IMG/VR virus record: IMGVR_UViG_2698536428_000013
Location: 1-21,445 of that record
DNA: 21,445 bases
From: a virus
Taxonomy: Duplodnaviria; Heunggongvirae; Uroviricota; Caudoviricetes
Reading direction: 5' to 3' (one strand)
How positions within the stretch are numbered: the first letter of the stretch is position 1; the number at the start of each line of letters is the position of its first letter. The notes beneath the pieces are model-generated. The model saw only the letters and a program-made list of their open reading frames with translations. It was not told the DNA's origin and ran no database searches. The position numbers and the translations under genes are program-made. Positions 2,204 to 13,874 of the stretch are shown one piece after another.

Positions 2204-2204
2204 G

Positions 2205-2233
2205 TCCATAAGAAAGCCCCTCCGGAGAGGGGC
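2205..2233 (-). terminator. Intrinsic terminator (GCCCCTC-CGGA-GAGGGGC hairpin, U-rich tail on the minus strand)
   Basis: A 7-bp perfect stem at 2216-2222 and 2227-2233 with a tetraloop. On the minus strand it is followed by TTTCTTATGG. It lies downstream of the TerB-like gene and small ORF. Confidence 0.45.
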
Positions 2234-2474
2234 TGGAGAGTGGCGCTATGTGCCATTGCATGGTGCCGGGTGCCTCCCGGTGAGTTCAGTATCAGCACCT
2301 GAACCCGCACAGAAAGGATAAGGGTCGGTGACAAAACACCAGTTGCTGATTGCCCCTCCGCACAGGGGGATTCACCATGCCAGTTTCTTTTAACAAACTC
2401 CCCGCAAACCAGACAACAGTCAACCGCCTGAATTGTGAGGTATTTAAAAATTTCAACGGGTAACTGATACCCTG

Positions 2475-2635: not shown

Positions 2636-3067
2636 TCACAGATGATTCTCCAGACGAAGGCCCAGAACACCGGCAATCTCTTCCAGCACCTTGCGCTCTT
2701 CCGGCTCTATTTCGCCGTCTGCTTCGGCAACGGCCACCGCCACATCCAGCACGTCTTCCGCTTCACGCGTATCGTGTTTCACATCCTCGATCTCACGTAA
2801 CGCCGCTCGACGACCAATTTTAAAGTTCGTATCCAGCTGACCGATAATGGTTGCGCTAATCGCATTAATTTCTGACGTAAACGCGGACAACGCAGGCTGG
2901 TTACGCAAGACCTGCTCGATCTTCGCTTTCTCTGAAGCCTCACATTCACCATCTGCATAGGCCACCAGATAGGCTGCATTAATAACCGCCTGTGCCAGAT
3001 CACGTTTCTCAAACTTTTTAATTTCCACTGCCGCTCGGCGGGCTTTTTTACCAAAAATACCAAACAT
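2636..3067 (-). CDS. TerB-like domain protein (tellurite-resistance TerB family), about 143 aa
   Basis: Start chosen at the internal ATG (MFGIFGKK...) with SD AAGGA about 8 nt upstream. Two ADG-containing acidic motifs (YLVAYADGECEASEKAKIEQVL and VAVAEADGEIEPEERKVLEEIAGVLGL) resemble the repeated motifs of TerB. It is the first gene after Q and the tR'-like terminator. Confidence 0.55.
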   Translation of the reverse strand: MFGIFGKKARRAAVEIKKFEKRDLAQAVINAAYLVAYADGECEASEKAKIEQVLRNQPALSAFTSEINAISATIIGQLDTNFKIGRRAALREIEDVKHDTREAEDVLDVAVAVAEADGEIEPEERKVLEEIAGVLGLRLENHL

Positions 3068-3197
3068 CGTGACGTTCCTTTGGGTGGGTGAGCCAACGCC
3101 CGGGAGCGATCTGCCCACAGAGAAAGTCACACTGACCACTCCGTAAGCTCACCCCCGAAAGGCTCTGTGGTTGATATGCGCCGGGCGTGGCGCAGAT

Positions 3198-3223
3198 ACA
3201 AAAAAAGCCCGCCGAAGCGAGCC
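3198..3223 (-). terminator. tR'-like intrinsic terminator (GCUCGC-UUCG-GCGGGC hairpin plus U7-8)
   Basis: On the minus strand GCTCGCTTCGGCGGGC forms a 6-bp stem (one G-U) with a UUCG tetraloop, followed by TTTTTTTT. It lies about 180 nt downstream of the Q stop. Confidence 0.6.
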
Positions 3224-3235
3224 TGATAATAAATC

Positions 3236-3310
3236 TGGAGCGGGTAGCGGGAATCGAACCACGATAAGAAGGTTAACAGCCTTCCGTAATGACCTTTATA
3301 CGACTGACCC
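3236..3310 (-). other. tRNA-sized, tRNA-like element (probable degenerate or chimeric tRNA; not a confident functional tRNA)
   Basis: Minus-strand 75-nt segment GGGTCAG..CTCCA with U8, A14, G18G19, A21, a 5-bp anticodon stem GAAGG/CCTTC with loop CTGTTAA (U33, GTT, A37) and T-loop GGTTCGATTCC. The acceptor stem and T-stem do not pair. Confidence 0.3.
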
Positions 3311-3349
3311 AAATAAAAAAAGCCACCGTTGCAACTTAAGAGTCACTAA

Positions 3350-3400
3350 CGGCAGCATATGCCAATAGTGTTGCTCATTTGCTCAATGATGTCAACACGT
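3350..3400 (-). promoter_or_regulatory. Putative late promoter PR' / qut region downstream of Q
   Basis: TTGACA on the minus strand (plus coordinates 3390-3395) immediately after the Q stop. The -10 element is not clearly identifiable. Placement is by analogy to lambda PR'. Confidence 0.3.
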
Positions 3401-3401
3401 C

Positions 3402-3890
3402 CTATGCTACATGTTTAATTTTCTCTACACGTTTCCGGTTTTTAAACGCACTATCCAGAACCGGGTAAATCATAAACAACGAGGCATTAAGGATTTCGTC
3501 AACTTCCCGTCGACAGGTTGCGAGCGATGGTTTTTGAATGCGCCCGCCGCCCCGGCATAACATCTTGCGAGGTCTTGCGACGCAATGATAGTAAGATGCA
3601 ATGGCGTGCCTGGAAGAACCATGAGCGTAGTAGCTGAGGAGGATGCCGAAGGCTTTCTTGTCAATGTACATGACGGAATCGACGACCTGAGAAATCAACA
3701 TTCCATCATCATCATTACACATTGGTCTTGTCATAACTCTTCCCGGCTCTACGCTCTCCATGAACTTCGCTATTACGCTGCTCATGCGCTTTTCCAGACG
3801 ACCTGAATAAACCCATGCGCCCCACAGTTCAAGCCAGCCATTCAGCCAATCGTGCTGTTCTTTGGTGAGGTTTAGTTCTCTTATGCCCAT
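3402..3890 (-). CDS. Q: Late antiterminator Q (phage 21/82-type Q family, not lambda-type), 162 aa
   Basis: Position directly downstream of ninG. Conserved WGAW and CNDDD-type motifs (LELWGAWVYSG, PMCNDDDGMLI) as in the short Q antiterminator family. Confidence 0.65.
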   Translation of the reverse strand: MGIRELNLTKEQHDWLNGWLELWGAWVYSGRLEKRMSSVIAKFMESVEPGRVMTRPMCNDDDGMLISQVVDSVMYIDKKAFGILLSYYAHGSSRHAIASYYHCVARPRKMLCRGGGRIQKPSLATCRREVDEILNASLFMIYPVLDSAFKNRKRVEKIKHVA

Positions 3891-6013: not shown

Positions 6014-6176
6014 AATGACCTCGCGTTTCGATAATTTTTACCTCGCCACCGTCAGGTGCTAATCATCGTGGTGGCGAACTGTGCGGGGTTAGCACTACCG
6101 GTCGAAACATCCGGCGAGCCTTTCGGCTCCCCCACACAGCCCGCCATAAATCGCGAATGTGACTGTGCTTAGCGCA

Positions 6177-6198
6177 TAAAAAAACCGCCAGCGCGGTT
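6177..6198 (-). terminator. Intrinsic terminator downstream of ninE
   Basis: Minus strand AACCGC-GCUG-GCGGUU hairpin followed by a T6-7 run. Confidence 0.5.
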
Positions 6199-6288
6199 AT
6201 GCACCGTTTCGATATCCGGGGTGCTAATCCCGACGCCAGATTTTGCTGGCGCGTGAGGAATATAGCCCCGAATAAATCATCGCGTCAA

Positions 6289-13668: not shown

Positions 13669-13733
13669 TATGCATACCAATAACGCTTCACTAGAGGCGT
13701 TTTCGTTATGTGTAAATAAATAAGGAGCACACC

Positions 13734-13874
13734 ATGCAATATGCCATTGCAGGGTGGCCTGTTGCTGGCTGCCCTTCCGAATCTTTACTTGAACGAATCA
13801 CCCGTAAATTACGTGACGGATGGAAACGCCTTATCGACATACTTAATCAGCCAGGAGTTCCCAAAAATGGATAA
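13734..13874 (+). CDS. cIII: cIII (FtsH/HflB inhibitor), 46 aa
   Basis: MQYAIAGWPVAGCPSESLLERITRKLRDGWKRLIDILNQPGVPKNG matches recalled lambda cIII, shorter at the C-terminus. SD AAGGAG upstream. Confidence 0.85.
   Translation: MQYAIAGWPVAGCPSESLLERITRKLRDGWKRLIDILNQPGVPKNG

Follow-up and report, generated by a model that had tools for sequence, protein, structure and literature searches.

A hybrid Asn/Gly tRNA pseudogene, the probable scar of a 159-bp deletion in a phage 21-like late-operon tRNA cassette

Late-operon tRNA cassettes and the position of the element

In phage L, Sf6 and phage 21 the late operon begins with tRNA genes, and supplementation of the tRNA pool has been discussed in connection with them (PMC8022706; PMC9119081). 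The original prediction for the locus studied here had remarked that lambdoid and Stx phages often carry tRNA genes at this position, and phage 21, Sf6 and JLK-2012 indeed do (PMC8022706). Phage 21 and Sf6 have annotated Asn-Thr arrays, and a longer Asn-Thr-Gly array is found in JLK-2012 and in prophages of E. coli O55:H7. The ileZ-argN-argO genes downstream of Q in the Stx phage 933W presumably occupy the same niche, which extends from the late promoter and terminator to the first late genes, and we take them to be intact and of other species and sequences. The cassette as such is already known (phage 21, Sf6, JLK-2012), and tRNA pseudogenes that arise when part of a tandem array is deleted are a familiar class.

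The window analysed here is the whole stretch of 21,445 nucleotides of IMG/VR record IMGVR_UViG_2698536428_000013, and the element of interest is a 75-nt segment of its minus strand at 3236-3310. Like phage 21, the window has a Q21-type antiterminator, a Q-binding element (QBE), a transcription start and tR' (PMC8022706; PMC9119081); the element starts at the same base after tR', and its first 57 nt are those of the tRNA-Asn of phage 21 and Sf6. Unlike in those phages, however, the Asn gene of the window is cut in the T-loop after nt 57 and fused to the tail of a tRNA-Gly, tRNA-Thr is absent, and TerB and DUF3927 genes follow the cassette, whereas in phage 21 and Sf6 the lysis genes follow directly. 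The Asn-Thr-Gly array of JLK-2012 and the O55:H7 prophages represents the direct parental layout, with identical flanks that include the downstream terminator and the TerB gene; compared with it, the window lacks an internal 159 bp and has one hybrid in place of three genes. We read the element as a hybrid tRNA pseudogene, a deletion scar in a phage 21-like late-operon tRNA cassette directly 3' of tR', and put the probability of this reading at about 0.88.

The late-control signals were placed with the help of the curated phage 21 record OL657228, which annotates the promoter, QBE, transcription start, pause element and terminator as well as tRNA-Asn and tRNA-Thr. Annotation transfer was used for pR' because the -10 element of phage 21 pR' is weak (AACACT); a simple sigma-70 scan of 3000-3500 returned no promoter. 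The features of this region are as follows.

3402..3890, minus strand: Q antiterminator of phage 21 type, 162 aa, 159/162 (98%) identical to phage 21 Q; Pfam Phage_antitermQ E = 1.5e-24
3360..3395, minus strand: phage 21-type late promoter pR', from the phage 21 annotation mapped by alignment
3395-3390, minus strand: -35 element of pR', TTGACA, mapped from phage 21
3387-3372, minus strand: QBE, ATTGAGCA/AATGAGCA, read directly in the window and identical to the phage 21 QBE
3372-3367, minus strand: -10 element of pR', mapped from phage 21
3360, minus strand: transcription start, mapped from phage 21
3359-3353, minus strand: sigma-dependent pause element, mapped from phage 21
3311..3358, minus strand: tR' homologue (phage 21 late-leader terminator), hairpin 3356-3322 and U-tract 3321-3311, mapped from OL657228
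3198..3224, minus strand: second intrinsic terminator-like hairpin (3224-3205) with T-run, from a terminator scan; -12.3 kcal/mol, z = -3.5

The phage 21 terminator is annotated from experiment, cited in OL657228 to PMID 1704887. Its homologue in the window begins 2 nt past the transcription start, folds at -18.4 kcal/mol (z = -2.4), is identical in loci with three different upstream contexts and forms the conserved 5' edge of the tRNA cassette. The second terminator lies at the 3' edge and follows tRNA-Gly in all intact arrays. These assignments change the position that had been proposed for the element. It had been placed between the Q stop and tR', inside a short pR' leader, with the hairpin at 3224-3205 taken for tR'. 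That hairpin is instead the second terminator, downstream of the element, and tR' lies upstream: transcription starts at 3360, tR' ends at 3311 and the element begins at 3310, directly 3' of tR' of a Q21-type pR' and outside the leader RNA between the late start and tR'. Because the hybrid starts right after tR', it would be transcribed only by Q-modified polymerase, outside the short leader, within the late transcript that is made once Q21 lets RNA polymerase pass tR'. It is therefore extremely improbable that the element is a tRNA-derived structure inside the pR' leader, part of a constitutive RNA ending at tR'. A good intrinsic terminator does follow the element, and a leaky tR' would let some transcripts end there, but the experiment-based phage 21 terminator maps to 3358-3311, and the interval that holds the element is occupied by ordinary tRNA genes in relatives.

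Two single-base details of this region deserve mention. The pause element is TATGCTG both in the window and in E. coli PM4-5, one of the genomes that carry the same hybrid, and TAAGCTG in phage 21 and the loci with intact arrays; the single A-to-T change brings it nearer to the -10 consensus. Downstream of the cassette, where the TerB-family and DUF3927 genes of the window are both intact, the TerB-family gene (2636-3067, minus strand) encodes 143 aa; in PM4-5 an internal stop interrupts the copy (L002 1854-2285), which is annotated as a pseudogene. The window and PM4-5 differ at 2/800 downstream positions, and the window is hence not from that strain.

Composition of the hybrid and remodelling of the arrays

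The minus-strand segment 3236-3310, GGGTCAGTCGTATAAAGGTCATTACGGAAGGCTGTTAACCTTCTTATCGTGGTTCGATTCCCGCTACCCGCTCCA, has the core of a tRNA. The U8, A14, D-loop GG and A21 reported in the original prediction are all found where it had put them on the minus strand, as are a perfect 5-bp anticodon stem (GAAGG/CCTTC) around the 7-nt loop CTGTTAA (CUGUUAA in the RNA) with anticodon GTT (GUU), the T-loop box GGTTCGATTCC, which includes GTTCGA, and a 3' CTCCA (CUCCA). The D arm and the anticodon arm are both present. The segment divides as follows.

3236..3310, minus strand: hybrid Asn/Gly tRNA, probable pseudogene, 75 nt; Rfam RF00005 match and exact split into two parental genes
3254..3310, minus strand: Asn-derived part, nt 1-57 of phage tRNA-Asn(GUU), 57/57 identical to L001 (E. 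coli O55:H7), phage 21 and Sf6
3270-3284, minus strand: anticodon arm of the Asn part
3254..3260, minus strand: 7-bp microhomology GGTTCGA that holds the deletion junction, the overlap of Asn prefix and Gly suffix
3236..3253, minus strand: part from phage tRNA-Gly(UCC) only, nt 58-75; with the overlap, a 25-nt suffix that is the tRNA-Gly 3' end (L001 1769-1843)

In a scripted comparison, the Asn prefix (57/57) and the Gly suffix (25/25) were identical to their parents and overlapped by 7 nt in GGTTCGA. This sequence is the conserved T-loop box of both tRNA-Asn and tRNA-Gly and the longest stretch common to the two genes, and the hybrid retains one copy of it; ATCGTGGTTCGATTCCCGCTACC spans the junction. 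The Asn part supplies the 5' strand of the acceptor stem, the D arm, the anticodon arm, the variable loop, the 5' strand of the T-stem and the early T-loop, and the 18 nt that come from Gly only supply the end of the T-loop, the 3' strands of the T-stem and acceptor stem, the discriminator U and CCA. Alignment of the window with intact loci gives a single clean 159-bp gap with identical flanks on both sides. The original prediction had offered a chimeric tRNA as one option, and this is the option that the comparison bears out; the alignment that it had proposed, to tRNA genes 3' of Q in related prophages, found the exact parents.

The parental array occupies the same position. The intact Asn-Thr-Gly array measures 234 bp in L001, L003, L007 and phage JLK-2012, and all three genes are annotated in E. 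coli O55:H7 USDA5905 (L001), 2013C-4830 (L003) and JLK-2012. When the region was compared by megablast with 5426 complete E. coli genomes, many prophages proved to carry annotated tRNA-Asn, -Thr and -Gly just 3' of Q. An ancestor of the window would thus have carried tRNA-Asn(GUU), tRNA-Thr(UGU) and tRNA-Gly(UCC) within 234 bp. A 159-bp deletion between the GGTTCGA direct repeats in the Asn and Gly T-loops, probably by replication slippage or short-homology recombination, would have taken out the 3' end of Asn, the whole of Thr and the first 50 nt of Gly (its 5' three quarters), leaving one gene-sized hybrid of 75 nt. Both processes are well known to delete sequence between short direct repeats that are separated by a few hundred bases. 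Because the same mechanism would predict sister hybrids, we looked for Thr/Gly (10-bp T-loop homology) and Asn/Thr fusions and found none in IMG/VR.

Other sources of the element were rejected. Chance resemblance to a tRNA is ruled out, as both halves are exact copies of real phage tRNA genes. The host tRNA-Asn genes, which the original prediction had named as a second set to align, are not the source: the alignment with K-12 asnT shares little beyond generally conserved tRNA positions. Finally, the 7-bp repeat is too short to collapse an assembly and the junction is present in four complete genomes and five IMG/VR contigs, which excludes an assembly artefact.

The hybrid is one of two examples of lambdoid late-operon tRNA arrays remodelled by recombination inside conserved tRNA boxes, the second being the tRNA-Thr of the intact array. 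Both are products of recombination inside tRNA genes, but in the Thr hybrid the same isoacceptor was joined, the cloverleaf was kept and PGAP calls a tRNA, whereas in the Asn/Gly hybrid unrelated stems were brought together and the fold was lost. The recombinant tRNA-Thr(UGU) (L001 1690-1765) is identical to phage 21 tRNA-Thr (L013 1032-1107) over nt 1-26 (26/26), and its nt 27-76 match the Thr gene of Thr-Gly cassettes at 47/50 positions (IMG/VR loci L021 and L015) and that of phage 21 at 31/50. Because its halves match different cassettes, the Asn-Thr-Gly array looks like the product of a crossover inside Thr between Asn-Thr and Thr-Gly cassettes. Its acceptor stem contains two G.U pairs in L001 and three in L007 and L017, and ARAGORN misses the gene at default settings.

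Arrays that end in tRNA-Gly(UCC) are modular with a fixed slot spacing, as judged from the 600-nt IMG/VR segments ending at tRNA-Gly (L015-L134). Among the matches listed, the forms were Thr-Gly (about 72), Met-Lys-Thr-Gly (14), Asn-Thr-Gly (9), Met-Lys-Lys-Gly (5), Gly alone (4), Lys-Thr-Gly (3) and Met-Arg-Thr-Gly (2). The Thr slot of L045 holds a tRNA that equals the L015 Thr except for one base and an anticodon changed from TGT to TTT, an apparent shift from Thr to Lys, and the Lys(TTT) and Arg(TCT) tRNAs of the neighbouring slot resemble each other. The phage tRNA-Gly(UCC) region (L001 1769-1843) is ~89% identical to an annotated chromosomal tRNA-Gly, the query being matched in 5418/5426 E. 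coli genomes; by this comparison the phage tRNA-Gly looks host-derived and the AT-rich phage Asn does not.

Folding of the hybrid RNA

The hand folding in the original prediction had left the acceptor stem and T-stem unpaired, and our results agree with it. In the register fixed by CCA, only 3/7 acceptor pairs and 2/5 T-stem pairs can form, so that the hybrid has neither a 7-bp acceptor stem in register with its discriminator and CCA nor a 5-bp T stem closing a 7-nt T-loop. In the parents, the T stem is fully paired (5/5), and the acceptor stem has 6/7 pairs in Asn and 7/7 in Gly. The coexistence of a canonical D arm, anticodon arm and T-loop with unpaired stems arises because Asn 5' strands face Gly 3' strands; the anticodon stem (5/5) and D stem (3/4 pairs), by contrast, are the same as in the parental Asn gene. 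The cloverleaf in the CCA register comes to +0.5 kcal/mol, against -19.1 and -25.4 kcal/mol for the parents, and the minimum free energy of the hybrid is no better than that of shuffled sequence (z = 0.04), compared with z = -4.1 for the intact Gly gene.

Gene-finding models gave a divided answer. The Rfam tRNA model matches 3241-3310 on the minus strand with 32.6 bits and so passes the gathering score of 29 (E = 0.0021 when the whole window is searched, 3.4e-05 locally), whereas the intact Asn, Thr and Gly genes score 55.3, 49.0 and 55.4 bits, placing the hybrid 23 bits below its parent gene. ARAGORN at default settings calls no tRNA anywhere in the window. Relaxed thresholds had been recommended in the original prediction. 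With -ps95, which lowers thresholds to 95% of default, ARAGORN returns a 72-nt tRNA-Asn(gtt), but its fold is aberrant, with a 6-nt T-loop and an acceptor stem of 5 bp that has unpaired bases to either side. PGAP/RefSeq gives no annotation for the element in any of the four complete genomes with the allele (PM4-5, SCU-104, LZSFT34 and EC100).

These matches raise the question of whether the hybrid could work as an aberrant tRNA-Asn, read in a shifted register, trimmed after a G, given its CCA by the CCA-adding enzyme and charged by AsnRS through its GUU anticodon. The main identity elements for AsnRS are the anticodon GUU and G73, and in the Rfam alignment, whose register is offset by 2 nt and whose acceptor and T stems carry a single bulge each, GGGU.AG forms a helix with CU.ACCC and a G takes the discriminator position; this acceptor-like helix has 6 bp, one bulge and pair probabilities of 0.74-0.93. 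The relaxed ARAGORN call also favours a working tRNA. However, the T stem of the same register consists of only 4 pairs around a bulge with a pair probability of <=0.02, in a fold 4.5 kcal/mol above the minimum, and the shifted discriminator is followed by CUCCA rather than CCA. A tRNA without a T arm offers no elbow to RNase P, EF-Tu or the ribosome. Together with the distorted model that ARAGORN needs, the 23-bit deficit and the lack of PGAP annotation in four genomes, these features make a working tRNA very unlikely.

We therefore favour the pseudogene reading, against which count the Rfam score above gathering, the shifted 6-bp helix, the ARAGORN -ps95 call, the persistence of the allele in at least three prophage backgrounds and its frequency, which is not very low beside that of its direct parent. 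Judged from its predicted structure, the hybrid is most likely non-functional: it would most likely not be processed, charged or used in translation, and would have no function of its own. For annotators, the hybrid deserves a tRNA-pseudogene label, and it illustrates that the Rfam gathering threshold on its own lets a broken tRNA through.

Distribution of the allele and the lost tRNAs

The exact junction occurs in 4/5426 complete E. coli genomes (PM4-5, EC100, SCU-104 and LZSFT34) and in 5 IMG/VR contigs, and GTDB representative genomes contain no exact match to it. Among complete E. coli genomes, the intact Asn...Gly arrangement was found in 13 records, with many more in which Asn has other partners, and the Thr-Gly cassette in about 152 genomes. 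An intact Gly gene is present in at least 120 IMG/VR contigs, and 9/109 analysable Gly loci among the IMG/VR matches listed have the Asn-Thr-Gly array. Relative to its direct parent, the hybrid is thus not very rare (4 genomes versus 13 records, and 5 contigs versus 9 among the IMG/VR matches listed). We found no annotation of the hybrid allele in the database records examined and no description of it in the literature, and a literature search for phage tRNA hybrids that had arisen by T-loop deletion turned up no direct precedent.

Carriers of the allele differ upstream of the cassette. The window, PM4-5 and EC100 have the Q21-type pR', SCU-104 and all five IMG/VR contigs have an Sf6-type Q and pR', and in LZSFT34 an HNH endonuclease gene separates Q from the cassette. 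In all carriers the mosaic boundary coincides with the start of the tR' hairpin. Over the 800 bp downstream, carriers and non-carriers are 99.4-99.8% identical with only 8 variable sites, by which the carriers fall into two haplotypes, one of them nearer to an intact-array locus than to the other carriers. With so few sites, the allele may have had a single origin and spread by recombination or may have arisen by repeated deletion, both being compatible with the pattern. The HNH endonuclease gene between Q and the tR'-tRNA cassette is found at L005 1959-2471 (LZSFT34) and also at L006 959-1471 (E2348/69). In every case the first base of the tR' hairpin (GCTGCCGTTAG...) marks the mosaic boundary of the cassette, which suggests that terminator and tRNAs move as a single unit.

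The real consequence of the deletion would be one of loss, the prophage being left without intact genes for tRNA-Asn(GUU), tRNA-Thr(UGU) and tRNA-Gly(UCC). The deleted tRNA-Thr(UGU) is the counterpart of phage 21 tRNA-Thr, with only the first 26 nt in common. P2 Old is a nuclease that destroys the tRNA-Thr(UGU) of the host, and phage 21 tRNA-Thr(UGU) protects cells against it (PMC12445682). The PARIS effector AriB cuts the host tRNAs Lys(UUU), Thr(UGU) and Asn(GUU) beside U36AAU39, between positions 40 and 41, and variant phage tRNAs restore growth against it (bioRxiv 10.1101/2025.02.04.636281). The phage tRNA-Asn reads U36AACCU where K-12 asnT (L135 1050-1125) reads U36AAUCC; the differences, at 39 and 41 to either side of the AriB cut site, would fit a nuclease-resistant variant tRNA-Asn. 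Intact-cassette and deleted-cassette carriers provide a natural comparison for asking whether the Asn and Thr tRNAs shield temperate phages from PARIS or P2 Old. In the literature we found no link of PARIS or P2 Old targets to lambdoid late-operon arrays beyond phage 21 tRNA-Thr.

The Asn part that survives in the hybrid raises the question of a non-decoding role for its RNA, as a decoy for nucleases such as PARIS AriB, as a structure that processes or stabilises the 5' end of late mRNA, or as a source of tRNA fragments. The D arm and anticodon arm of phage Asn are intact in it, the anticodon arm having a probability of about 0.86; the arm differs from host asnT at 39 and 41, around the AriB cut site; the allele is present in three upstream contexts; and competition by viral tRNAs has been raised as a possibility for AriB (bioRxiv 10.1101/2025.02.04.636281). 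However, the perfect conservation of the hybrid is uninformative given that its flanks are 99.4-99.8% identical in carriers and non-carriers alike, with no sign of selection, and the hybrid is a minority allele. AriB also contacts distal parts of the tRNA, and a decoy without a tRNA body would probably go unrecognised (bioRxiv 10.1101/2025.02.04.636281). A non-decoding role is consequently a slim prospect, and there is equally little chance that the hybrid is not inert, whether as a decoy for tRNA-cleaving defence nucleases or as a processed, stable tRNA-derived fragment. In a related scenario, the T-loop heptamer could be a hot spot at which deletions recur, so that prophages lose their anti-defence tRNAs repeatedly.

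Several features of the intact prophage arrays touch on the same nucleases. Their Asn(GUU), Thr(UGU) and Lys(UUU) species are reported AriB targets, and P2 Old likewise acts mainly on Thr(UGU). In the array Thr of L001, positions 27:43 and 28:42 are mismatched, which shortens the anticodon stem, and the CNG motif of the 3' strand is altered; resistance to P2-OLD has been reported for each of these two changes (PMC12445682).

Elsewhere in the window, other Rfam models match above their gathering scores: the STnc100 sRNA at 2204-2409 (minus strand, 143 bits), the C4 antisense RNA at 6067-6151 (minus strand, 75 bits), isrK at 6178-6252 (minus strand, 77 bits), the a1/b1 targets of C4 at 6213-6265 (minus strand, 51 bits) and the lambda cIII thermoregulator at 13721-13779 (plus strand, 88.5 bits). 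The presence of C4, isrK and a1/b1 beside antirepressor genes indicates a P1/P7-type, immI-like antirepressor control module in a lambdoid prophage.
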